A stretch of DNA of 64,000 nt, taken from Dehalococcoidia bacterium. GTDB lineage: Bacteria > Chloroflexota > Dehalococcoidia > Tepidiformales > Tepidiformaceae. The notes beneath the pieces were generated by a model, which had not been told where the DNA came from, made no database searches, and was given only the letters and a program-made list of their open reading frames with translations. Position 1 is the stretch's first letter; every line of letters starts with the position of its first letter. The position numbers were made by a program, and so were the translations under genes. The DNA is taken from NCBI GenBank assembly GCA_046328215.1, contig JAXLXA010000002.1:18799-82798 (forward strand), in the 5' to 3' direction. Shown here in pieces: positions 159 through 53,862 of this stretch.

Positions 159-3100
159 ATGACCGACGAGGCCGCGCGGCGGATCATCGTCGAACAGACC
201 GAAGAGACGATTTTCGTCGAGGCCGGCGCGGGCACGGGCAAAACGACGGAGCTGGTCGGGCGCATCCTCGCGCTCATCCGGTCCGGTGTGCCGGTCTCGC
301 GCATCGCGGCGATCACCTTCACCGAGAAAGCGGCGTCGGAGCTCGCCGAACGCGTCCGCAAGCGAATCGAAGCGTCCGAGGCGGCGGCGAAGACCGAGGA
401 GCAGCGGGCCGTGTTCACCACCGCGCTCAAGGAGCTGGACCAGGCCGCCATCCAGACACTGCACAGCTTCGCGAGGCGGCTGCTCAGCCTCTATCCGCTC
501 GAAGCCGGCCTTCCGCCTCGAGTCGCCCTGCGCGACGACGTCGAGGCGTCACTGGCGTTCGACGACCGCTGGGCCCGATTCCGGGACCGGTTGCTGGACG
601 ACCCGGAGACCGAGCGCGTGCTGCTTCGTGGCCTGACGACCGGCCTGCGCCTGCGCGACCTCGAAGCGGTGGCGGAGAGCTTCAACCAGAACTGGGACCG
701 CCTGGAGGACATTGCTCTTCCGGCGGCGGCCGAACCGGCGCTGAACCCCGAGCGCGTGCTCGACCCGTTGCGCGAGCTGGCCGCGATGCGCCGCCCGGGC
801 GTCGATGATTCGTTGACGAAGCGCCTTGATTCGGTGGAACCGTGGCTCGCCGGCCTGGATGGCCTTTCGAAAGCACTGCGCGCCAGCAACGGGGACAAAC
901 GCGATGCGTTGGAGCTGGACCTGGTCCGCATCCTGGCCAAGATGCCACAGCTGGCGGGGACCACGAGCCACGGCGGCAACGTGGGCAACAGCAGGTACTG
1001 GTCGGACATCGCGGGGGCGCGCCAGTTGCTCATGGAAGCCGAAGAGGCTCGTGGGGCGATGCTCGACGGCACGCGAAGCTGGGTGCTTTGCGAACTGCTT
1101 CCGCGCCTCTCCCGATTCGTGCTCGAAGGGGCCCAGGAGCGGCGGCGCAACGGTGAACTCGAATTCCACGACCTCCTCGTGCTCGCGCGGGACCTCCTGC
1201 GCACGCGGCCCGACGTCCGCCGGGCGCTGCACGAGCGGTTCCCTCGCATCCTCATCGACGAGTTCCAGGACACCGACCCGTTGCAGGTTGAGCTGGCGGC
1301 GTTGCTCGCCCACTCCGGCGAACAGGGGCCTGTGAGTTGGGACCAGGCCGCCACCGAAGCCGGGCGACTGTTCTTCGTCGGGGACCCGAAGCAGTCGATC
1401 TACCGCTTCCGGCGCGCGGACATCGAGCTGTTCAAGCGGGCGCGAGGCGCTTTCGCGGCGAGGCATGTGCCGCTCAGCAAGAACTTCCGCTGCCGCCCCG
1501 GAATCATCGATTGGGTGAACCTGGTGTGCGCGCGGCTGTTCAATGGCTTCGGGCAGTTTCCGGACGGGCGCCAGGCTGACTGGATTCCCCTCCAACCGGG
1601 GAGAGACACCGTGAAGCCCCCGGTGGTCCACGTCATGGGTGGGCCGGCGGAAGATGAGGTGCTGATGCCGGAGGTCCGGCGGCGCGAGGCCGAGGCGATC
1701 GCAGCCGCCGTCCTCGCCGCTCGCAAGGACAACTGGCTCGGGCAGAACGAGCGAGGAAAGACCACGCGCTACGCCGACATCGCCATCCTCCTGCCCACGC
1801 GCACGAATTCTCCGGCGATCGAGCGGGCGCTGGCGGCGGCGGGAGTGCCGGTGCGCATCGAAAGCCGCTCACTGCTCTTCGCGGCCCAGGAGATCCGGGA
1901 CCTCACCAACATCCTGGCCGCCATCGACGACCCGACGGACGACGTAGCGGTGCTGGCGGCGTTGCGGTCGCCGGCGTTTGCGATGCAGGACGGTGACCTG
2001 CTGGAGCATGTCAAAGCCGGCGGACGCTGGGATTACACGCGTGAGTCGCCCGATGCCTCGCCGGAGTGCGTGCGCGACGCGATGGCCTCGCTCCTCGGGT
2101 TCCACGAGGCACGCTGGCTGCTGAGCATTGGGGCGCTGGTCGAGCGAGTGATCGCGGAGCGGCGGATGCTCGAACTGGCTATTTCCACGTCGCGGCCGCG
2201 GGAAGCCTGGCGCCGGCTCCGCTTCGTTTCGGAACAGGCGCGGGCGCTCGGCGATTCGGGGACCGTCACGTCGCTGCGGCAGTTCGTGCACTGGCTGCGC
2301 ACCCAGGCGAGCGAGCGCGTGCTCATCGCCGAGGCGGTCGCCAACGAGCCAGACGACGATGCGGTGCGCATCCTCACGGTGCACGCTTCCAAGGGCCTCG
2401 AGTTCCCAATCGTGATCCTGGCGGGTCTCGGCATCGAACCGCGGCAGATTCGCCCGAGCATCGCATGGGCGCACGATGCCAGCGGCCGTGAGACCGCGGG
2501 CGTCCACATCGGCCGCTATGGCACGTACTTCGACACACCGGGCTACCAGGGACTCTGGCAGAACGAGAAGGTGCACGAAGCCCTCGAGCGTGACCGCCTG
2601 TTCTACGTTGCCGCCACGCGCGCGAAGGAACGCCTGGTGGTCAGCCTGTTCCACAAGCCGGTCAAGGAGCGGGCCGGCAACGACCATCTCTCGCGGCATG
2701 CCAGGCGGGCCTGCTCCACGGCCGAGTGCCTGTCGGCCATCCAGAACGAAGCCGGCAACTGGCCGGTGCTCCAGATCGGGATGGCGCTGGGCCCCGGACA
2801 GGCGGCTACGAGCACTCTTGAAGACACTGCCGAAGAGCGAGAAACGTGGCTGAAGGCGCGCGAGGAGCGGGTAGCGCGGCTCCGACAGGCGCCGGTGCGG
2901 GCAGTGACGACGCTCGTCCACGGCGACACGGAAGACGACAAGCCCGAACCGGAAATCGAGGAGCAGCCGTGGCGGAAGGGCCGGGCCGGCACGTCGATCG
3001 GCCGCGCGGTGCACGCCGTGATGCAGACAATCGACCTGTCGACCGGCGAACACCTCCGGGAGACCGCGGAATCGCAGGCGCTGGCGGAAGGGATCGCGAA

Positions 3101-3497
3101 TCAGGCGGCGCACGTTGCGCGCCTGGCAGAGAGCGCCCGGACGTCGCCATCCATCGTGGCCGCCGTGGCAACCGGCCGGTACTGGCGCGAGTTGTACGTG
3201 GGTGTGCCCATCGCCGGGACGCTCGTCGAGGGGTTCATCGACCTGCTCTACGAGTCGCCGGACGGCCTCGTTGTCGTCGACTACAAGACGGATTCGGTGC
3301 GGGACGAGGCCGCGATCGACGCTGCGATGGAGCGGTACCGGCTGCAGGGCGCGGCGTACGCGCTCGCGCTGGAGCGGGCGCTGGGCAGGCCCGTTGCGCG
3401 CGCGGTGTTCGTTTTCACCGAACCGCGGGCCGAACGAGAAGGCACCGACTTGCCGGGCGCGAAGGCAGAGATAGAAGCGCTGCTGGCGAAGGCGTAG
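159..3497 (+). CDS. ATP-dependent helicase-nuclease, UvrD/AddA-like (N-terminal SF1 helicase, C-terminal PD-(D/E)XK nuclease)
   Basis: Walker A AGAGTGKTTELVGRI near the N-terminus. UvrD motif II DEFQDTDPLQ. GDPKQSIYRFRRAD. C-terminal nuclease-like VEGFIDLLYESPDGLVVVDYKTD. Start taken at MTDEAARR within ORF 33..3497. Confidence 0.8.
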   Translation: MTDEAARRIIVEQTEETIFVEAGAGTGKTTELVGRILALIRSGVPVSRIAAITFTEKAASELAERVRKRIEASEAAAKTEEQRAVFTTALKELDQAAIQTLHSFARRLLSLYPLEAGLPPRVALRDDVEASLAFDDRWARFRDRLLDDPETERVLLRGLTTGLRLRDLEAVAESFNQNWDRLEDIALPAAAEPALNPERVLDPLRELAAMRRPGVDDSLTKRLDSVEPWLAGLDGLSKALRASNGDKRDALELDLVRILAKMPQLAGTTSHGGNVGNSRYWSDIAGARQLLMEAEEARGAMLDGTRSWVLCELLPRLSRFVLEGAQERRRNGELEFHDLLVLARDLLRTRPDVRRALHERFPRILIDEFQDTDPLQVELAALLAHSGEQGPVSWDQAATEAGRLFFVGDPKQSIYRFRRADIELFKRARGAFAARHVPLSKNFRCRPGIIDWVNLVCARLFNGFGQFPDGRQADWIPLQPGRDTVKPPVVHVMGGPAEDEVLMPEVRRREAEAIAAAVLAARKDNWLGQNERGKTTRYADIAILLPTRTNSPAIERALAAAGVPVRIESRSLLFAAQEIRDLTNILAAIDDPTDDVAVLAALRSPAFAMQDGDLLEHVKAGGRWDYTRESPDASPECVRDAMASLLGFHEARWLLSIGALVERVIAERRMLELAISTSRPREAWRRLRFVSEQARALGDSGTVTSLRQFVHWLRTQASERVLIAEAVANEPDDDAVRILTVHASKGLEFPIVILAGLGIEPRQIRPSIAWAHDASGRETAGVHIGRYGTYFDTPGYQGLWQNEKVHEALERDRLFYVAATRAKERLVVSLFHKPVKERAGNDHLSRHARRACSTAECLSAIQNEAGNWPVLQIGMALGPGQAATSTLEDTAEERETWLKAREERVARLRQAPVRAVTTLVHGDTEDDKPEPEIEEQPWRKGRAGTSIGRAVHAVMQTIDLSTGEHLRETAESQALAEGIANQAAHVARLAESARTSPSIVAAVATGRYWRELYVGVPIAGTLVEGFIDLLYESPDGLVVVDYKTDSVRDEAAIDAAMERYRLQGAAYALALERALGRPVARAVFVFTEPRAEREGTDLPGAKAEIEALLAKA

Positions 3498-4862
<1,365 letters not shown>

Positions 4863-13027: not shown

Positions 13028-14266
13028 GTGAAGTTTCACTGGTTCAATCTCATGCCCTACCCGTACCTGCCGGACGACTTCCGGCAAACGCACCGGAGCG
13101 TTTGGGTGGATGTCGATTCCCGCCTGTACGACCCGGTGAAGGGCCACACCGTCTACAACGACTACCTGGATCTGCTGGAGTTTGCCGCCGAACAGGGCTT
13201 CGACGGCATCGGCGTGAACGAGCATCACGCGAACGCCTACGGCCTGATGCCGTCGCCGGCGCTGATGGCCGCCACGCTCGCCCGCCGCACGCGCGATGTC
13301 AGCATCATCCTCCTGGGCCAATCGATCGCCCTGTACAACCCGCCCACGCGCGTTGCCGAAGAGATGGCGATGCTCGACGTCATCTCCGGTGGCCGGCTGA
13401 TTGCCGGCTTCCCCGTCGGGACTTCGATGGATACGAACTACGCGTTCGGCGCCAACCCGGCCACCCTGCGCGAGCGTTACCAGGAGAACCACGACCTCAT
13501 CATCCGCGCCTGGACGGACCCGGATGTCTTCCCGTGGAACGGGAAGTTCAACCGCCTCCGCTACGTGAACATCTGGCCGCGGCCGATCCAGAAGCCGCAC
13601 CCCCCGATCTGGATCCCGGGCGGTGGGTCGGTAGAGACCTGGGACTTCTGCGCGGAGAACAACTACAACTACAGCTACCTCAGCTTCAGCGGGTTCAAGC
13701 GCGGCGCCCAGCTCATGAACGGCTTCCACGACCGCGTGGTTGAGATGGGCAAGGAGTTCAACCCCTACCAGGCCTCGTTCGCGCAGCAGATCATCGTGGC
13801 CGACTCGGAGCAGGAGGCCGAAGAGAGCTACTTCGAACACGCCCGCTACTTCTTCGAGCGTTGCCTTCACGTCTATCCCGGGTTCGCGGACGCGCCGGGG
13901 TACCGCACAGAAGCGACCATCCGGGCCGGCCTCAAGGCGCAGGTCGCCGGGGTCAGCTCCGGTGGCGCGGTCGGCAAGTCGTTCCGGCAGTGCGTGGACG
14001 AAGGCTTCCTCATCGCGGGGAACCCCGACCAGGTGACCGAGCAGATGGAGCACATGATCAAGTCGCTCAACGTGGGCCACGTGTTCTGCCTGATGCACAT
14101 CGGCGACATGCCGAAGGCGAAGTGCGAGAAGAGCACCACGCTGTTCGCGCAGCAGGTCATGCCACGGCTGCGCCACCTGTGGGCGGAGTACGAAGACCAC
14201 TGGTCGCCGAAGCCGCTCTCGGAGCTGGCGGAGCCGCGGCCGATTCGCCAGCCGGCGCTGGCCTGA
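13028..14266 (+). CDS. LLM-class flavin-dependent oxidoreductase (luciferase-like monooxygenase)
   Basis: MKFHWFNLMPYPYLPDDF... LLM/TIM-barrel family hallmarks. 412 aa. Confidence 0.8.
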   Translation: MKFHWFNLMPYPYLPDDFRQTHRSVWVDVDSRLYDPVKGHTVYNDYLDLLEFAAEQGFDGIGVNEHHANAYGLMPSPALMAATLARRTRDVSIILLGQSIALYNPPTRVAEEMAMLDVISGGRLIAGFPVGTSMDTNYAFGANPATLRERYQENHDLIIRAWTDPDVFPWNGKFNRLRYVNIWPRPIQKPHPPIWIPGGGSVETWDFCAENNYNYSYLSFSGFKRGAQLMNGFHDRVVEMGKEFNPYQASFAQQIIVADSEQEAEESYFEHARYFFERCLHVYPGFADAPGYRTEATIRAGLKAQVAGVSSGGAVGKSFRQCVDEGFLIAGNPDQVTEQMEHMIKSLNVGHVFCLMHIGDMPKAKCEKSTTLFAQQVMPRLRHLWAEYEDHWSPKPLSELAEPRPIRQPALA

Positions 14267-25305: not shown

Positions 25306-25351
25306 CCTTCGGGTAGGGAAAATCGGGCACTGCGCGAGGTAGAGTGCTCGC

Positions 25352-26860
25352 ATGACGACTCGGCCAACCGGGCGACAGCGCGGGCGCCCGCCTTACCCAC
25401 TGCTCACTCCAGCCGAAGAGCGGGTCCTCCAGTTCATCCGCAAGGGCCACACAAACGGCGAAATCGCTGAGCGCCTGGGCGTCAGCCTCGACGCCGTGAA
25501 GTACCACGTCTCGAACATGCTCGGGAAGTTGGAGCTCCGCAGCCGGGAAGAGCTCGCGGGCTGGCGCCCCCAGCGCAACCCGCTGGCGCGGCTCTGGGGT
25601 GCGATCCCGCTGGCGGTGAAGCTCGGCGCGGGCGGCGCCGTGGCAACGGCGGTGGCTGGCGGCGCGGTGCTTGCCGCGCTCAGCCCCGCCGCGGAGGCGC
25701 CGCTCTACGAGGGCGTTGTGACGGTGGGCTACGACGGCCAGCCCGCCAACGGCAGTTCGGAGATGCTCCAAATCTCGGGCGACGGGAGGTACGTCGTCTA
25801 CGCGTCCTGGGCGAGTAACCTCGTGCCCGACGACCAGGACACGCAGATGGACGTGTTTCGGTTCGACCGTGAGACGAACAAGACTGAGCTGGTGAGCATC
25901 GATGAAACAAGTGCTGACGGTGGCGCGGGCTGGCCGCAGGTGTCCAATGACGGCAGGTTCGTCGCCTACAGCTCCGCGGGAAGCGAGGGCCGCCCCCGGG
26001 CTGTCGTACGAGATATGAGCACCGGCGCCGCGTCTTTCATCGCGGATGACTTCACCGGCGCGCCGGCGCTCTCGGGAGATGGGCGGTTCCTTTCGACAAT
26101 GCGAAACGACGAACCGGGGGTGATGTTCCCGAAAGGCACGCTCCTGATTTACGACGTTTATCAGGGTTCGGTGGCCTGGTCAGTGCCGGTCGACAGGGAG
26201 GTAGACCCGCTGTTTATCGGGCAAGAGTTCAGGCTCTCCATGGACGGGCGCTGGCTCGCGTTCCTGGCCGGGGAAGTCCCGGGAGCCACGTGCGAGCGGC
26301 GAGTGACCTCGATACAGATCAATGGGATCACGAGAGATGTCCCGTTGCGGCGGCCTTTTGTGCACGATCTTGTGACAGGAGAGACGTGGTGTACGCCGAT
26401 CGGAGACGCCGCCGACATTGCATCCCAGCCCGGGCCGCTCGGCATGTCTGGTAACACGCTCGTGTACGGAATCAGCCGGTGGGAACCGGACAGCCGGATA
26501 GTTATCGACAGCCAACTTGCGTTGTACGACATGGGATCTCGCCACGTCCACTATCTGACCAGGGCGGGAGAGCCGTTCTTCGGCACCGACATCGCTCCCG
26601 GGGCTGCCAATAACGGACGGATCCTGGCGATTCTGAACAATCCCGCGCAATCCCAGCGAGGCCAGGTCAATGGCATCCTGTGGATGGGCGCCGGCAGCGA
26701 ACGCGAGGTGGTTGAACGACCGGCGCGGTTTGAGGACTGGGGATTGTCACACTCTGAGCCCGTCCTCTCGGAGGACGGCCGCTCCCTGGCCTTCGCCGTG
26801 CGCGGTCAGGACCGCACGAGTGGCTCGCAAGTCCAGGACATCTACGTTGTGAGCCGCTGA
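25352..26860 (+). CDS. membrane-anchored LuxR/GerE-type HTH regulator with extracytoplasmic TolB/PD40-like beta-propeller domain
   Basis: N-terminal LTPAEERVLQFIRKGHTNGEIAERLGVSLDAVKYHVSNMLGKL. One TM helix (AIPLAVKLGAGGAVATAVAGGAVLAAL). PD40-like repeats (GDGRYVVYASWASNLVPDD..., SNDGRFVAYSS). Confidence 0.8.
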   Translation: MTTRPTGRQRGRPPYPLLTPAEERVLQFIRKGHTNGEIAERLGVSLDAVKYHVSNMLGKLELRSREELAGWRPQRNPLARLWGAIPLAVKLGAGGAVATAVAGGAVLAALSPAAEAPLYEGVVTVGYDGQPANGSSEMLQISGDGRYVVYASWASNLVPDDQDTQMDVFRFDRETNKTELVSIDETSADGGAGWPQVSNDGRFVAYSSAGSEGRPRAVVRDMSTGAASFIADDFTGAPALSGDGRFLSTMRNDEPGVMFPKGTLLIYDVYQGSVAWSVPVDREVDPLFIGQEFRLSMDGRWLAFLAGEVPGATCERRVTSIQINGITRDVPLRRPFVHDLVTGETWCTPIGDAADIASQPGPLGMSGNTLVYGISRWEPDSRIVIDSQLALYDMGSRHVHYLTRAGEPFFGTDIAPGAANNGRILAILNNPAQSQRGQVNGILWMGAGSEREVVERPARFEDWGLSHSEPVLSEDGRSLAFAVRGQDRTSGSQVQDIYVVSR

Positions 26861-29499: not shown

Positions 29500-30062
29500 G
29501 TTCGAGTGAGTTCGGCCACCCGCTTACTGCCGTGCGCGGTTCGGACTGAGGACTGAGTCGCCAGAGGTCATCGAATCGTGTGGGTCGGGCGTCGCAGCCG
29601 CTCCCTTGCAGTCGCGGCTACGGCCTGGCGGTGGTGTGGGTTCGGCCACCCGCTTACTGCCGTGCGCGGTTCGGATGGGGCGTGCGAGGGCGCGGTCAAT
29701 GGACCGTGTGGGTTGGGCGTCGCAGCCGCTCCCTTGCGTTCGCGGCTACGGTTTGGTGGTGGTGTGAGTTCGGCCACCCGCTTACTGCCGTGCGCGGTTC
29801 GGATGGTGGGCGCGGTCAACGGACCGTGTGGGTTGGGCATCGCAGCGCCCCTTGCGGTCGCGGCTACGGTTTGGGTCGGTGGTGTGAGTTCGGCCACCGC
29901 TTACTGCCGTGCGCGGTTCGGATGGTGGGCGAGGTCAACGGACCGTGTGGGTTGGGCATCGCAGCGCTCCCTTGCGGTCGCGGCTACGGTTTGGTGGTGG
30001 TGTGAGTTCGGCCACCCGCTTACTGCCGTGCGCGGTTCAGATGGGGGCGTGCGAGGGCGACG
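29500..30062. repeat. Repeat array 2: ~4.5 tandem units of ~128 bp containing the core ccgcttactgccgtgcgcggttcgg. The first unit also carries gactgaggactgag (reverse-complement heptamers).
   Basis: Units gagttcggccacccgcttactgccgtgcgcggttcggatggtgggcg.ggtcaacggaccgtgtgggttgggc.tcgcagc.ctcccttgcggtcgcggctacggtttggtggtggtgt. The last unit supplies the PP2C stop codon. Confidence 0.85.
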
Positions 30063-33028: not shown

Positions 33029-33135
33029 GCGAGCCGCTATCCGGCGACTCCTGACATAACCCTGTCAGGACGCATGGTTTACGGTGGTAGTTGGGCCGCA
33101 AGCGAGGCTCGACTGAAGCACGAAAGGAAGCAGAC

Positions 33136-33849
33136 ATGCAACTCGACGGAAACCTCATCGTCAACCTGAACAGCGAACATCCAGAGGCGCTGGTCGCGTT
33201 CTACCGGGAGGTCATTGGTCTGAAGCCGAACGCGATGATGGGCGAATCAGCCTTCATGGCCGCGAACACAGCAGTGGTGTTCGACGGGCACAGCGAACTC
33301 AACGGCGGCACGAAGGAGCCTGCGCGGACGATGCTCAACTTCTCCACGGATGACGTGGCGAAGGAGAAGGCGCGGCTCGAGTCGCTCGGTGTGCGATTCC
33401 TGGGGCCGCCTTCGAACGAACCGATATCGTTCGCGACGTTCGTGGACCCGGACGGGAACTACGGCCAGATCTTCTCGATGGAGGGCGCGCCGGCGGGCGT
33501 GGAGATGTTCGCGCTGATGCGCGAGAGCGAGGACCCGGAGCGGCTGCGGACCTTCCTGCGGGACATCGTTGGGCTTTCGGACGACCACCCGGAGATTGGC
33601 AACCCGTTCATCGCGGGCGAGACCTCGATCTACGTGGGCGAGCACAGCGAGGTGAAGGGCCAGGCAAAGGAGCCGGCCCGCGTGCTGCTGAACTTCCCGG
33701 TGGCGGACCTCGCGGCCGAGCAGAAGCGGCTCGAAGGGCTCGGCGTGAAGTTCATCCGGACGGCGGGGAAGGAAGCGTGGGGCGGCGTCATCAGCACGTT
33801 CGTGGACCCGGACGGGAGCTACTGGCAACTGATGGAGTTCAAGGGGTAG
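33136..33849 (+). CDS. VOC-family (glyoxalase/bleomycin-resistance-like) protein, two tandem VOC domains
   Basis: Repeated ...NLNSEHPEALVAFYREVIGL... / ...FVDPDGNYGQIF / FVDPDGSYWQLMEF. Confidence 0.65.
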   Translation: MQLDGNLIVNLNSEHPEALVAFYREVIGLKPNAMMGESAFMAANTAVVFDGHSELNGGTKEPARTMLNFSTDDVAKEKARLESLGVRFLGPPSNEPISFATFVDPDGNYGQIFSMEGAPAGVEMFALMRESEDPERLRTFLRDIVGLSDDHPEIGNPFIAGETSIYVGEHSEVKGQAKEPARVLLNFPVADLAAEQKRLEGLGVKFIRTAGKEAWGGVISTFVDPDGSYWQLMEFKG

Positions 33850-33906
33850 GAGCGTTCTCAACGCCGGGTAGGGAAACCCCAACCCGGCGCCGGGTAGACT
33901 GGGCGC

Positions 33907-35616
33907 ATGCCATACAAGCCCACGGGACGGCCGCCGGGCAGGCCGCGCCACCCGGAGCCGCTCACGCCAGCCGAACAGCGGGTCCTCCGCTACCTCCGCC
34001 AGGGCAGGACGAATGCCGAGATCGCGGACGCACTCGATGTCTCGCCCGACGCGGTGAAGTACCACGTCTCGAACATGCTGGGGAAGCTCGAACTCGAGAG
34101 CCGCGAGCAACTTGCCGCCTGGCGCGAGCCGTCGCCGGTTCTGCGCGCGTGGGCGGCGATGGGCGGGCTCGGGTGGAAGCTCGCCGGCGGCGCGGCCGCA
34201 CTGGTTGTGGCGACCGGCGTGGGCGTCGGGGGCTGGCTCCTCCTGCGCGGAGACGGTTCTGGGACCGAACCCGCCGACTTGAGCGCCCTGGCAACCGGCG
34301 TCCTGAGCATCGGCATCGACGGCCAGCCGGCGAATGGTCCGTCGCTCAGCCCGTCGATCTCCGATGACGGCCGCTTTGTCGCGTTCGAATCCGAAGCCAC
34401 GAACCTCGTGAAGGACGATACGAATGGCGTCAGTGACATCTTCGTCGTTGACCGGGCCGACCGTTCCATCCGGCGCGTCTCGCTCGCGCCCGGCGGGAAG
34501 GAGGCGAACGGCGCCTCGCACCGCCCGGCGATTTCGGGTGACGGCAAGTGGGTCGCGTTCGACTCCGAGGCCAGCAACCTCGTGAAGGACGACGTGAACG
34601 GGGAGCTGGACCGGGTGCTGGCTCATGTTTCCGAAGGCTTCTTGGAGTCGTTCGGTGACAACTCGGACGGACGGGACGCGTTCGTCGCCCAGCGCGCGAC
34701 GTGGGCCGGCAGTGATGTTTTCGTCGTGGAGTTGAAGACAAAGAAGGTGGACATCGTCTCGCTCACTACTTCCGGAGAGCGCGGCGACCTCGGTTCGTTC
34801 TGGCCGACAATTTCACGAGATGGCCGATATGTGGCGTTCGAGTCATCGGCGCCGAACCTCGTGGGAGAGGTACGCGCGCGCTTGGCACCGCCCGCGATAC
34901 TCCGTGTCTCCGGCTTCAGTACCGATGTTTTCGTCCGAGACCGAGACCGCCGGACGACGACGAGGATCTCGATTGGAAACGACGGGACCAAGCCCTTCAT
35001 GAGCAGCGTTGGGCCGGTCATTACGCCGGACGGCCGATTCCTTTCGTTCGTCTCAGGCGAGCCGGCGCTGGCCGGTCCGCGTCAGAGGCAGATCCTGAGC
35101 GGATACGTCTGGAGCAGGGACACTGGGAAGCTGCGCGTCATTCCAGACCCGGAGTTTCCCAGCGGGATGGACTCCGTGTTCGTGGTGGAGTTTTCGCGAA
35201 TAGCGCTCTCCGCCGACGGTACGACTCTGGCGTATCAGGCGACCTTCGGTCTTTCCAACACGGCCCGGGAGCAGACTGAACTCAGGGGGTGTTTCGCCCA
35301 GGTCGCGGGGGAGAACGCCTCGCGCGTGGTGGACTCGACAGCCCCAGAGTGCACCGTATCGGCTGGCGCGAACGCTCCAGCTTTGCTTGACCGGGAAGTG
35401 GTATACCCGACCGCGAGCGGCGGCGGGGTCAGGACTTATGCTTTGGACACCAGGCAGACGGCGGTGACAAGCCTTCCCACCGGATTCGATGCGCTCTTTC
35501 AGCCGGCCGCCGCGAGCGGTCAGACCGGGAAATGGATTGTGGGCACTTCGGCGTTCGGTGCGTGGTTGGATGCCGATGGGCAACTGCGAGTGCAGGTGGT
35601 TGTGTTGGCAAGGTAA
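33907..35616 (+). CDS. membrane-anchored LuxR/GerE-type HTH regulator with extracytoplasmic TolB/PD40-like beta-propeller domain (paralog of 25352..26860)
   Basis: LTPAEQRVLRYLRQGRTNAEIADALDVSPDAVKYHVSNMLGKL. TM helix. PD40-like DDGRFVAFESEATNLVKDDTNGVSDIFVVDR, GDGKWVAFDSEASNLV. Confidence 0.8.
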   Translation: MPYKPTGRPPGRPRHPEPLTPAEQRVLRYLRQGRTNAEIADALDVSPDAVKYHVSNMLGKLELESREQLAAWREPSPVLRAWAAMGGLGWKLAGGAAALVVATGVGVGGWLLLRGDGSGTEPADLSALATGVLSIGIDGQPANGPSLSPSISDDGRFVAFESEATNLVKDDTNGVSDIFVVDRADRSIRRVSLAPGGKEANGASHRPAISGDGKWVAFDSEASNLVKDDVNGELDRVLAHVSEGFLESFGDNSDGRDAFVAQRATWAGSDVFVVELKTKKVDIVSLTTSGERGDLGSFWPTISRDGRYVAFESSAPNLVGEVRARLAPPAILRVSGFSTDVFVRDRDRRTTTRISIGNDGTKPFMSSVGPVITPDGRFLSFVSGEPALAGPRQRQILSGYVWSRDTGKLRVIPDPEFPSGMDSVFVVEFSRIALSADGTTLAYQATFGLSNTAREQTELRGCFAQVAGENASRVVDSTAPECTVSAGANAPALLDREVVYPTASGGGVRTYALDTRQTAVTSLPTGFDALFQPAAASGQTGKWIVGTSAFGAWLDADGQLRVQVVVLAR

Positions 35617-40729: not shown

Positions 40730-40763
40730 TGCCCCCTACCCGGCGACTTCGTAGGATTGCCCC

Positions 40764-51970: not shown

Positions 51971-52091
51971 GCGCGCGGTTCACCTTCCTCAACCACCAGG
52001 GCCGGCTTTGTCCGGCCCCTGGTGTTCTGGAGGGGTAGGGACATCGCCTGGACCGCTGCCTATGGTGTCTCCCAGCGACACCAGCGAGGGC

Positions 52092-52832
52092 GTCATGGAC
52101 CACCAGGGACTCGACAACGCAGAACAGTGCCTCACTCCGCGGGAGCGCGACGTGGTCGCCCTCGCGCGGCGCGGTTATACGAACAGCGAGATAGCCGGAC
52201 AGCTCGGCATCACCCGCAACGCCGTGCGGTACCACCTCAAAGAGATCCATTCGAAGCTTGGCACCGGCGGCGAGCGAAACCGCCTGGAGCACGGGTGGCG
52301 GCGCGCTCTTGCGCTGCTCGCGCTGCCGCTGGGCAAAACGGCCTCCACAATGACCATCGCCGCCGTGGCGACCGCGCTCGTGGGCGGCGCGTACGCGGCC
52401 TACCGCATTGTGCCGCGAGAGGACGCGATCGCCGCGCCCGCACGATTCGAGGGGACCGTCATCGTGGATGGCACTCCTCAGCCGTCCATCATCGTCGAGC
52501 TGTCGCCGGGAGACGGCAGCATCGTCTCGGCTGCTTCGACGCAAAGCCCGGACCAGCTGAATCCCTCGGGAGTCTGCGTCCGCGTGCGGTTCGTTGGGAC
52601 GCCCGAGACGGGCCGCTGGTTCAGGCTATTCGTGGACGGCACGGATGTCACGGCTCAATCCGTCTGGAAGGTCCCCCATACGTCCCAAACGGAGACAGGC
52701 ACCCTCTGTTACGCCCCGGAAGCGGGCCTCCCGGTGGGCAGGCGCACGGCCGAGCTCCGCGTCCAGGATCCGAACATCCCGGGTGGCGTCGCCCGTGAGA
52801 CCGCCCGATGGAGCTTCACCGTCGCGCCGTGA
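52092..52832 (+). CDS. membrane-anchored LuxR/GerE-type HTH regulator with extracytoplasmic domain (paralog 3)
   Basis: LTPRERDVVALARRGYTNSEIAGQLGITRNAVRYHLKEIHSKL. TM ALALLALPLGKTASTMTIAAVATALVGGAYAAY. Alternative start at 52059. Confidence 0.7.
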   Translation, partial: VMDHQGLDNAEQCLTPRERDVVALARRGYTNSEIAGQLGITRNAVRYHLKEIHSKLGTGGERNRLEHGWRRALALLALPLGKTASTMTIAAVATALVGGAYAAYRIVPREDAIAAPARFEGTVIVDGTPQPSIIVELSPGDGSIVSAASTQSPDQLNPSGVCVRVRFVGTPETGRWFRLFVDGTDVTAQSVWKVPHTSQTETGTLCYAPEAGLPVGRRTAELRVQDPNIPGGVARETARWSFTVAP

Positions 52833-52956
52833 TGCGCCTTAGAACACGCTGCGGTGGTCGTCCTCTTCGGCGCGTCGCTTCTGGGTTAGGCCTTCGTCGG
52901 AAATGCCTTTACCTGGGAGTAGGGTGTTTGCTGTCAAGGCACGTTAGTGTGCGTGA

Positions 52957-53862
52957 ATGGAACCTGTCCGCCTCACGCCTCGGCAGCATGAGGTGCTCGA
53001 ACTGTTGGCGAAGCGAAGAAGCAACCAGGAAATTGCCGACAAACTGGGTATCTCGCTTGACGGCGCCAAGTGGCACGTGCGTGAGGTGCTGCAGATCTAC
53101 GGGGTGGGTAGCCGCGAGGAAGCGGCTGAGCGCTTCCGCATTGAGCACGGCCTCCCGCGGCGGCTCTGGCGGATGACCTGGAGCGCGGTCAACGTGGCAC
53201 TCGTGCTGGGGGCCGCGGTGCTGGCGCTGGTCGTCGCCGCCGTCCTCATCGGCGTGAACCTCCGCGGCGACGAGGAGCAGCCGGCTGCGAACGTTTCCCC
53301 GGCAGCCTCGGCAACATCTGCCACGGTCCCGACATCGACCACGACCCCGGGAGCCACGGTGTCCGCGCCCTCGCGAGCAACCGGCCAGGCCTTCCTCGAT
53401 TCGGTGACGTCCCGGCTTGAATCCGGCGTGCCGATCGGACGGACCGACCTGGCAGGGCAAAATCTGCCCTGCCTGAACAAGTCGTTCCTGGGTGACACCA
53501 ACCCGGGCTGCCCGAGCGGTGCGGCGGACGGCACCCTGGTGCTCTCGATCATCACGTTCGCCTGCGAGATCGAATGGATCGCGCTGACGCCTGATCTGCG
53601 ACTGACCACCATCGCAGGAGACCGTCTGGCACTCGATTCCGTGCTGCTCGGCGGCGCAGTCTACACGCGGCCGCCAGCGGTGAACGCCACACCCGACTAC
53701 TGGATGCTGTTCAAGAGCGTGGGCGCGAACTTGCCTGCGGGCTTCGCCGTCGCGGTGAAGGACGGCAAAGTCGTCTCGTGGGGCCGTAGCTGTGGGGATT
53801 TCGAATCGCTGGAGGACCGCTTAGGCGCGGGCGCGGCGGGAACCCTGCCGTTCTCGCCCTAA
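52957..53862 (+). CDS. membrane-anchored LuxR/GerE-type HTH regulator with extracytoplasmic domain (paralog 4)
   Basis: LTPRQHEVLELLAKRRSNQEIADKLGISLDGAKWHVREVL. TM AVNVALVLGAAVLALVVAAVLIGV. Thr/Ser-rich linker. Confidence 0.75.
   Translation: MEPVRLTPRQHEVLELLAKRRSNQEIADKLGISLDGAKWHVREVLQIYGVGSREEAAERFRIEHGLPRRLWRMTWSAVNVALVLGAAVLALVVAAVLIGVNLRGDEEQPAANVSPAASATSATVPTSTTTPGATVSAPSRATGQAFLDSVTSRLESGVPIGRTDLAGQNLPCLNKSFLGDTNPGCPSGAADGTLVLSIITFACEIEWIALTPDLRLTTIAGDRLALDSVLLGGAVYTRPPAVNATPDYWMLFKSVGANLPAGFAVAVKDGKVVSWGRSCGDFESLEDRLGAGAAGTLPFSP

Follow-up and report, generated by a model that had tools for sequence, protein, structure and literature searches.

Four genes in a 64-kb stretch of DNA from a Dehalococcoidia bacterium of the family Tepidiformaceae (contig JAXLXA010000002.1; the whole stretch of 64,000 nucleotides, with a G+C content of 66%, is called the window below) encode proteins that very likely share one architecture: a DNA-binding helix-turn-helix (HTH) of the LuxR/GerE type at the cytoplasmic N-terminus, a single membrane segment and a C-terminal domain outside the membrane. 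We refer to these four plus-strand open reading frames (ORFs) as A, B, C and D. Judging from their sequences, they are a family built on one N-terminal module with interchangeable sensor domains. Each gene is preceded by a version of a promoter box, through which, as we consider probable, the family is autoregulated. Our interpretation as a whole, namely that A-D are N-in single-pass GerE-type regulators that bind their own boxes and whose activity is set by the outside domain, appears likely on balance.

The N-terminal module and its C-terminal partners

An earlier note on this DNA had described the four ORFs as genes for regulators with an N-terminal GerE-type HTH, and in this it was confirmed. 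The Pfam model GerE (PF00196, gathering cut-off 23.5 bits) matches the N-terminus of each protein above its cut-off, with scores of 48.2 (A), 57.5 (B), 42.8 (C) and 36.3 bits (D). The genes and the parts of their products are as follows.

Gene A, 25352..26860, + strand: 502 aa; GRP arm at aa 6-16 (TGRQRGRPPYP), GerE HTH at aa 18-69, hydrophobic segment at about aa 84-113, PD40 propeller at aa 120-502
Gene B, 33907..35616, + strand: 569 aa; GRP arm (GRPPGRPRHP), GerE HTH at aa 18-71, hydrophobic segment at about aa 83-113, PD40-repeat domain
Gene C, 52092..52832, + strand: 246 aa; no GRP arm, GerE HTH at aa 13-59, hydrophobic segment at about aa 75-107, C-terminal domain of about 140 aa
Gene D, 52957..53862, + strand: 301 aa; no GRP arm, GerE HTH at aa 6-57, transmembrane helix at aa 71-101, Ser/Thr/Pro-rich linker at aa 102-131, alpha/beta domain at aa 145-290

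A hidden Markov model of the four N-termini, compared with the six-frame translation of the window, matched A-D and nothing else (E 1e-34 to 1e-37). Identity to A is 29-39% for the full-length proteins B, C and D and 37-58% when only the first 100-115 residues are compared. In the AlphaFold2 (AF2) model of A the HTH comprises four helices (residues 20-30, 35-42, 46-59 and 65-70), and the HTH of D superposes in Foldseek on those of LiaR, VraR, NarL and GerE with a root-mean-square deviation of about 1.5 A (range 1.5-2.4 A) and up to 48% identity. An NCBI protein 100% identical to A is annotated as 'LuxR C-terminal-related transcriptional regulator'. The NCBIfam models for NarL, EpsA, CsgD and SdiA-like proteins match A-D at the HTH only and far below their own cut-offs; the best of these matches to A, NarL, covers model positions 156-212 only and reaches 38.7 bits against a cut-off of 250 bits.

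Membership in more familiar families was assessed by the domains that accompany the HTH. The receiver domain (Response_reg) has no Pfam match in A-D, which sets them apart from NarL-type response regulators, and no autoinducer-binding domain was matched and the HTH is N-terminal, which separates them from the quorum-sensing LuxR receptors. Trans_reg_C gave no Pfam match at E <=0.1 in any of the four, so that they do not belong to the ToxR/CadC family, and the TolB equivalog model TIGR02800 scored 22 and 18 bits against a cut-off of 343 bits, i.e. there is no full-length TolB match. As to extracytoplasmic function sigma factors, region 2 is without a match in A-D, and TIGR02937 scored 13-28 bits against 42.9, over region 4 only; in C the Pfam models Sigma70_r4_2 (29.4 bits) and Sigma70_r4 (27.2 bits) exceed their cut-offs. 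No anti-sigma domain was detected in A-D with Pfam. A transmembrane regulator as defined by Demey et al. 2023 (PMC10269533) has a DNA-binding domain together with one or more transmembrane regions; in A-D, GerE provides the first of these.

Each of the four proteins has one hydrophobic segment directly after the HTH, at about aa 75-115. The single transmembrane helix of the earlier description thus stands as a single segment in all four, but the helix is clear only in D and marginal in A, B and C: the Kyte-Doolittle (KD) maxima over 19 residues are 1.71 (A), 1.87 (B), 1.55 (C, the lowest of the four) and 3.11 (D), and AF2 models residues 71-101 of D as one continuous helix. A second, weaker peak in D (1.68, aa 192-210) corresponds to beta-strands of its modelled C-terminal domain. 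In all four proteins the segment is flanked by 3-4 lysine or arginine residues on its N-terminal side and by acidic residues on its C-terminal side, in agreement with the positive-inside rule, which places the GerE-matched N-terminus on the cytoplasmic side. S26 signal peptidases, sortases, LysM and similar domains act outside the cytoplasmic membrane, and relatives of A-D carry such domains in the C-terminal position (see below). A predicted N-in/C-out single-pass topology is therefore supported indirectly, both by this charge pattern and by the fused domains of the relatives. The two outcomes that the earlier note had named as refuting, an HTH predicted outside the cytoplasm and N-termini that lack a GerE match, did not occur. 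Chloroflexota are generally regarded as single-membrane bacteria, and on this general ground the sensor domains, called periplasmic in the earlier note, are better called extracytoplasmic.

The C-terminal domains differ from protein to protein. The PD40 or TolB-like repeats claimed for two of the genes were recovered in A (30 bits) and B (45.1 bits), both above the PD40 cut-off. The AF2 model of A, with a predicted local distance difference test score (pLDDT) of 81, is confident for the HTH (aa 20-70), of low confidence for aa 75-113 and confident again for an all-beta domain (aa 120-502), which is modelled as 28 strands, i.e. seven four-stranded blades. In Foldseek this propeller resembles those of S9 peptidases, DPP-IV, TolB and tricorn (E down to 3e-12), and PD40 domains related to it are also found fused to signal peptidase I. 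Large outside domains had been claimed for all four proteins, but C has only about 140 aa in this position, and D about 200 aa with a folded part of about 145 aa. The domain of C contains 2 cysteines and has no Pfam match. The model of D (pLDDT 78.6) consists of the HTH (aa 8-64), the helix, a disordered Ser/Thr/Pro-rich linker and the alpha/beta domain, in which four cysteines (C172, C185, C203 and C279) are invariant; among the 50 PDB matches listed by Foldseek none was to this domain, all being to the HTH.

We looked for relatives in two ways. When one genome per species was searched for the peptide pattern [PLS]D[AG]VK[YF]HVS, 58 loci (L numbers) were obtained. In the membrane-anchored members found in this way the HTH motif lies at about aa 42 and the hydrophobic segment at about aa 80-100 (KD up to 3.3), followed by C-terminal parts of about 100 to 1,150 aa with PD40 propellers, RCC1-type propellers or no Pfam match. 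The proteobacterial members, in contrast, are proteins of about 208 aa that lack a hydrophobic segment and carry a VOC/glyoxalase domain. Such soluble GerE-VOC proteins (about 205-220 aa) occur in Sphingomonadales, Caulobacterales and many soil metagenome contigs. The proposal of a lineage-specific expanded class thus fits the membrane-anchored forms, all of which come, within the genome scan, from metagenome-assembled genomes (MAGs) labelled Chloroflexota or from one 'uncultured bacterium' MAG, but not the N-terminal HTH as such, which is also present in the soluble proteins of Proteobacteria and other soil bacteria.

The second search compared a profile of the four N-termini with 1.84 billion representative proteins. 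Among the best 150 matches, about 66 cover the entire module without interruption, from the HTH through the linker to the hydrophobic segment, and almost all of them have it at the N-terminus. In 49 of 50 such module clusters the strongest hydrophobic segment falls at aa 80-121, with KD values of about 1.6-3.3, mostly 2-3.3; the exception is P0244, with the module at aa 154-259. Among 51 proteins scanned for C-terminal domains, A included, we found PD40 (11), RCC1_2 (4), LRR (2), DPPIV_N (2), sortase (1), LysM (1) and BNR/sortilin (1). P0138 and P0141 join the module to an S26 signal peptidase whose SM.PT, KR..G.PGD and GDNR..S.DSR motifs are intact, and P0150 is a module relative with GerMN/Gmad2 domains. 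Full-length relatives of A that combine GerE and PD40 occur in metagenomes (35-84% identity), the closest relatives of B are in L005 (77%), L004 (61%) and L007 (53%), and C and D have small families of about 13-15 full-length homologues each, those of C from Dehalococcoidia/Tepidiformaceae. One of the loci, L003, belongs to Candidatus Amarobacter glycogenicus, also of the family Tepidiformaceae.

Some features of the relatives were noted in passing. Enzymes of secretion or of the cell wall (the S26 signal peptidases P0138/P0141, the sortase and the LysM member) bear a DNA-binding head. P0180-P0190 are predicted proteins of great length, reaching 7,703 aa, with 8-24 tandem GerE-like stretches, and some Chloroflexota proteins (L051, L055) have two tandem HTHs at the N-terminus. 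Seven short family ORFs of 102-166 aa (L018, L019, L025, L030, L033, L035 and L040) turn into Arg-rich low-complexity sequence directly after the HTH; frameshifts in the MAG assemblies may have cut short what are really membrane forms. Beside the closest relative of B, L005 also contains a 640-aa ORF (1924-3843, - strand) with a GerE-like HTH in the canonical C-terminal orientation (aa 569-622).

The promoter box of the family genes

The 200 nt upstream of the family genes share a box, CGGGTAGGG(A/T)AA(A/T)(T/C)C, followed by 14-15 unconserved bases, a -10-like TAnnnT, usually 5-8 further bases and the ATG. The box is 15 bp long and asymmetric, and it would lie at about -42 to -28 if transcription begins at the ATG; a -35-like hexamer is not evident in the family promoters. 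In the window the following elements were located, with scores from a position weight matrix (PWM) where given; the boxes of C and D were recognized by a composite pattern that is described below.

Promoter box of A, 25310..25324, + strand: CGGGTAGGGAAAATC, PWM 26.2 (the maximum), in the 46-nt gap after an M20 peptidase gene
-10-like hexamer of A, 25340..25345, + strand: TAGAGT, 6 nt before ATG 25352
Promoter box of B, 33865..33879, + strand: CGGGTAGGGAAACCC, PWM 20.3
-10-like hexamer of B, 33895..33900, + strand: TAGACT, 6 nt before ATG 33907
Promoter box of C, 52032..52046, + strand: variant GGGGTAGGGACATCG, composite pattern
-10-like hexamer of C, 52061..52066, + strand: TATGGT, separated from ATG 52095 by a 28-nt leader that contains the ribosome-binding site GAGGG
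Promoter box of D, 52916..52930, + strand: degenerate variant GGAGTAGGGTGTTTG, composite pattern
-10-like hexamer of D, 52945..52950, + strand: TAGTGT, 6 nt before ATG 52957

A box identical to that of B precedes its closest relatives in L005 and L007, and the C and D subfamilies retain box variants of their own in other contigs: the C-type variant GGGGTAGGGACAGG precedes the C homologue in L062-L064, and GGAGAAGGGTGAAG stands before the D homologue of L059 at the position equivalent to the box of D. The distance from the -10 element to the ATG implies that A, B, D and most of their relatives would be translated from leaderless mRNA, and that C has a leader. In the case of C this bears on the start codon. 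The ORF given for it in the earlier note is real, but its GTG start at 52092 is less probable than the ATG one codon further on, at 52095. A database form of the protein (P0153, 256 aa, 98% identical) begins instead at ATG 52062. Since this codon lies within the -10 element and since both leader and ribosome-binding site are conserved in L062 (TAGGGT, a 29-nt leader and GGAGGGG), ATG 52095 is most likely the start.

The box is closely linked to the family. It was found upstream of 53 family genes of the window and the genome loci. A PWM scan of both strands of 506 kb, comprising the window and the 58 genome loci, gave 59 matches at a threshold of >=14 bits, and 58 of these lie at the start of a family gene, including extra copies in L009 and L055. 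The only exception (GGGGTAGTGAAAATA, 19.7 bits; L054, 2954-2968, + strand) is located about 1 kb upstream of a family gene in an Asticcacaulis locus and has no TAnnnT at the usual spacing. For assigning membership we used a composite pattern, in which the box G(G/A/T)G(T/A)AG(G/T)G is placed 20-22 nt from a TAnnnT -10 element directly upstream of a gene. In the window a relaxed composite pattern has four matches, all of them at the four family genes, whereas shuffled sequences gave 0.4 matches on average and 3 at most. Metagenome contigs were scanned with a DNA pattern alone, with the GGG form of the box imposed, which returned at least 120 sites. A family HTH follows within 330 nt in 95 of the 120 sites listed, and for 6 of the remaining 25 the contig ends less than 90 nt downstream; most genes behind the listed sites encode the soluble forms (about 205-220 aa). 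Chloroflexota and Alpha-, Beta- and Gammaproteobacteria have the box in common, while the surrounding DNA is not conserved.

When 125 promoters were aligned, the box and the TA...T positions were conserved and nothing else. No second half-site, direct or inverted, is conserved among them, apart from 3 stray extra copies, and a LuxR-type palindrome was rejected as a model in favour of a single asymmetric site. The octamer GGGTAGGG occurs 5 times in the window against 0.84 expected. Two of these copies, at 13055-13062 and 40734-40741 (both - strand), were considered as further family promoters; they lack the A/T tract, the -10 element and a start codon and are probably not. Literature searches with the box sequence returned unrelated matches only.

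In the loci of the genome scan, which were picked by a protein pattern and not by their DNA, boxes and recognition helices are combined with the following counts.

Recognition helix H-V-S-N: GTAGGG 27, GTAGTG 2
Recognition helix H-V-x-E: GTAGGG 2, GTAGTG 10

One base of the box thus co-varies with one residue of the recognition helix (Fisher p = 3e-6, without correction for shared ancestry). By alignment to the NarL-DNA structure, this residue presumably adjoins a base-contacting lysine. The recognition helices of A and B are identical.

A second correspondence concerns the basic arm with a GRP core that precedes the HTH in most members (RQRGRPPYP in A, GRPPGRPRHP in B) and is absent in C and D. 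The Hin recombinase, in which an N-terminal GRPR arm binds the minor groove beside an HTH, offers a structural precedent for such an arm. An AT-hook is defined as a GRP core flanked by basic residues and prolines that binds the minor groove of A/T-rich DNA (PMC11354804), and the putative arm fits this definition. In the box an A/T tract directly follows GTAGGG, and all six armless genes (C, D, L056, L057, L059 and L062) are without the (A/T)AA(A/T) tract. A pairing of arm and tract is suggestive only.

Reading of the box and mode of action

In the interpretation that we favour, the HTH would contact GTAGGG in the major groove of the box and the GRP arm the adjacent A/T tract in the minor groove. 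Each regulator would act on its own promoter, A and B, whose recognition helices are the same, would also cross-regulate each other, and the outside domain would set the activity of the regulator. The domains, the box, its linkage to the family genes and the co-variation are results of computation, from which topology, DNA binding, leaderless transcription and the sign of regulation are inferred. As the box travels with the gene across phyla and the only shared component identified is the gene product, self-recognition is the simplest explanation. Activation and repression are equally possible from sequence alone; we lean towards activation given that no -35-like hexamer is present.

Several points weigh against this interpretation. 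A, B and C have Ala- and Gly-rich segments whose hydrophobicity is marginal (KD 1.55-1.87), and AF2 assigns a pLDDT of <50 to residues 75-113 of A. The tether between HTH and membrane is about 6-15 residues long, which would force the promoter DNA against the membrane. LuxR-type HTHs usually bind inverted repeats or paired sites as dimers, and a lone asymmetric site would require binding as a monomer or as a dimer with one specific half-site. Neither the PWM scan nor the pattern scan of the window found a target other than the family's own genes. The co-variation has exceptions (4/41) and may stem from one or few ancestral events, and the link between arm and tract involves six genes from four subfamilies and is gone when '>=3 of 4 A/T' is taken as the criterion for a tract.

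The short tether and the Gly/Ala-rich helices also keep alive a model in which the active form is a soluble fragment: an outside signal would lead to cleavage, and a site-2 protease would then release arm and HTH to bind the box. A tether of this length makes DNA binding awkward while the protein is anchored. Gly, Ala and Pro are frequent in the membrane segments of A, B and C, and helix-destabilising residues of this kind are favourable in substrates of site-2 proteases. That soluble relatives have the same HTH and box indicates that the module can work without a membrane, and release would resemble both the regulated intramembrane proteolysis of anti-sigma factors and the cleavage-dependent activation of CadC. 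On the other hand, ToxR-type regulators show that action from the tethered state is possible, no cleavage motif was identified, and no protease gene is conserved beside the family genes in the compared loci, the window itself not having been searched for one. We consider release a minority possibility. Whether the stretch after the HTH spans the membrane at all in A, B and C may also be asked, as KD maxima of only 1.55-1.87 and the low AF2 confidence in A would suit a flexible Ala/Gly linker in soluble cytoplasmic regulators. This stretch is, however, free of charges over about 20 residues, is placed where relatives have clear helices (KD 2-3.3) and has flanks that follow the positive-inside rule; moreover, the same module bears a sortase, S26 signal peptidases and LysM in other proteins, and A-like PD40 domains are fused to signal peptidase I. 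A mere linker in these three proteins is very unlikely in our view.

The box itself could be the element of another factor, an alternative sigma factor or a different regulator, with the family genes as members of a regulon that do not regulate themselves. It is single and asymmetric, keeps a fixed distance to the -10 element and overlaps the -35 position as a -35 element would. Yet a separate regulon should hold other genes, while nearly all strong PWM matches (58/59 in 506 kb) and most of the metagenome sites listed precede family genes; in addition, the box follows the gene across phyla with the gene's own product as the sole shared component identified, and one of its bases co-varies with the family's recognition helix. 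Recognition by another factor therefore seems unlikely. Even less can be said for the notion that the N-terminal domain mimics sigma region 4 and binds a protein (as an anti-sigma-like or RNA-polymerase-binding domain) instead of DNA, which we hold to be highly improbable. Sigma70_r4/r4_2 do score above their cut-offs in C and L057 and reach E <=1e-4 in 21/51 family members, and an anchor with a variable sensor is also the layout of anti-sigma factors, but GerE outscores the sigma models in every case, the structures nearest to the HTH of D (up to 48% identity) are those of LiaR and NarL in complex with DNA, and the co-variation with the box points to DNA recognition.

A more speculative view, to which we give little weight as a complete scheme, takes arm and HTH as a monomeric reader of the -35 region, comparable to a detached sigma region 4, that recognises the single asymmetric 15-bp box at its set distance from the -10 element and activates the leaderless copy of its own gene. 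As the HTH leaves the ribosome first and the mRNA would be leaderless, such a reader could act in cis on its own promoter during synthesis. If this were true, the module would be a cross-phylum signalling chassis that takes up either a cytoplasmic VOC domain or a membrane helix with an outside propeller, enzyme or wall-binding domain, and its fusions to sortase and signal peptidase would signal the state of secretion or of the wall.

Known systems and genomic surroundings

Several known systems resemble the family in part. ToxR, CadC and TcpP unite in one polypeptide a cytoplasmic DNA-binding domain at the N-terminus, one membrane helix and an outside sensor at the C-terminus, and the same order is predicted for A-D. 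An analogy to ToxR/CadC that had been drawn before applies to the topology, but not to the protein family: ToxR, CadC and TcpP use an OmpR-type winged helix (Trans_reg_C), whereas A-D use GerE and a tether of only about 6-15 residues. In ToxR, CadC and TcpP the linkers are about 50-60 residues long. NarL, LiaR, VraR and GerE have the four-helix fold in common with the HTH of A-D; theirs are C-terminal output domains of response regulators, or stand-alone in GerE. Paralogous sets with a conserved N-terminal cytoplasmic domain, one helix and swapped sensors are also formed by the RsgI-type anti-sigma factors of Clostridium thermocellum, which bind a sigma factor and not DNA. Their layout is like that of A-D, in which no anti-sigma domain was detected. 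The nearest relatives of the N-terminal module are the soluble GerE-VOC proteins, whose GRP arm, HTH, box and ATG spacing are the same as in the family and which have a cytoplasmic VOC domain in place of the anchor and outside sensor.

Among membrane proteins with LuxR-type HTHs, DadR, HcdR and CadR of Eggerthella lenta (Coriobacteriia) belong to a lineage-expanded group with 83 members in one strain (PMC9734109). These have 10-12 N-terminal helices and a C-terminal HTH (PMC9734109). They were the only membrane LuxR regulators with published studies that our literature search brought up. For A-D the opposite orientation is predicted, with an N-terminal HTH, one helix and a globular outside domain. 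GerE has been catalogued as the third commonest DNA-binding domain of transmembrane regulators (4,943/50,302, 9.8%; Demey et al. 2023, PMC10269533). In that census PD40 is counted in 321 transmembrane regulators, and the single-pass combinations 'GerE,2CSK_N' and 'Trans_reg_C,PD40,PD40' are recorded; a 'GerE PD40' combination was not found in the covered part of its supplement (PMC10269533). The census is a catalogue only, with no data on function, operators or topology, and mentions Chloroflexota for hybrid forms only. A census of actinobacterial LuxR proteins does not discuss membrane forms. In the literature searched, we found no characterised single-pass regulator with an N-terminal LuxR/GerE domain, no paper that unites GerE, PD40 and transmembrane, and no functional study of the GerE-VOC relatives or of the box. 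The novelty claimed in the earlier note was somewhat overstated in that GerE transmembrane regulators were already catalogued (PMC10269533); previously undescribed are the shared box, the arm and the leaderless layout.

Transmembrane one-component regulators are common in censuses and few of them have been studied, mostly of the ToxR/CadC type. The family described here would add a second DNA-binding fold in a ToxR-like topology, with an unusually short tether, and it comes with a predicted operator, i.e. a 15-bp box in which a helix residue (N/E) is paired with a base (G/T) and the arm with the A/T tract. It also contains natural controls: soluble VOC forms with the same head and box, and membrane forms with propellers, wall-binding domains or secretion enzymes. 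Little is known about regulation in Tepidiformaceae and Dehalococcoidia, and the family is probably one of the ways in which they sense conditions outside the cell. In annotation, start codons can be assigned with the help of the box and the leaderless start, as was done here for gene C.

The neighbours of A-D are unrelated housekeeping genes, encoding an M20 peptidase, GNAT, PP2C, SPFH and VOC proteins, ribosomal protein L9, citrate synthase and flavin reductase, and the comparison of neighbours and synteny with the relatives brought out no functional partner or target gene. The slots of the family genes are conserved. An A-like or B-like gene stands upstream of the genes for ribosomal protein L9 and a 464-aa protein, the latter, encoded after B, being 92-94% identical to its counterparts in L001, L003, L004 and L007, and the slot of C and D in the relatives lies between citrate synthase and flavin reductase. 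Family genes are adjacent or in tandem in L009 and L055. Directly upstream of B lies a two-domain VOC/glyoxalase gene (33091-33849), a pairing that is kept in L004 and L007 (in L005 the distance is 2.7 kb). Its similarity to the VOC domain of the soluble relatives is generic (28% identity, E 4e-6) and insufficient for a functional link.

No RNA family was found within the window with Rfam. A tandem array of 4.4 copies of a 119-bp unit (29506-30046, 88% matches) is located between the genes for the GNAT protein and the PP2C phosphatase. A CRISPR-like nature of this array was rejected, as it is continuous without spacers, and it has no Rfam match; it contains repeated peptide ORFs on both strands.

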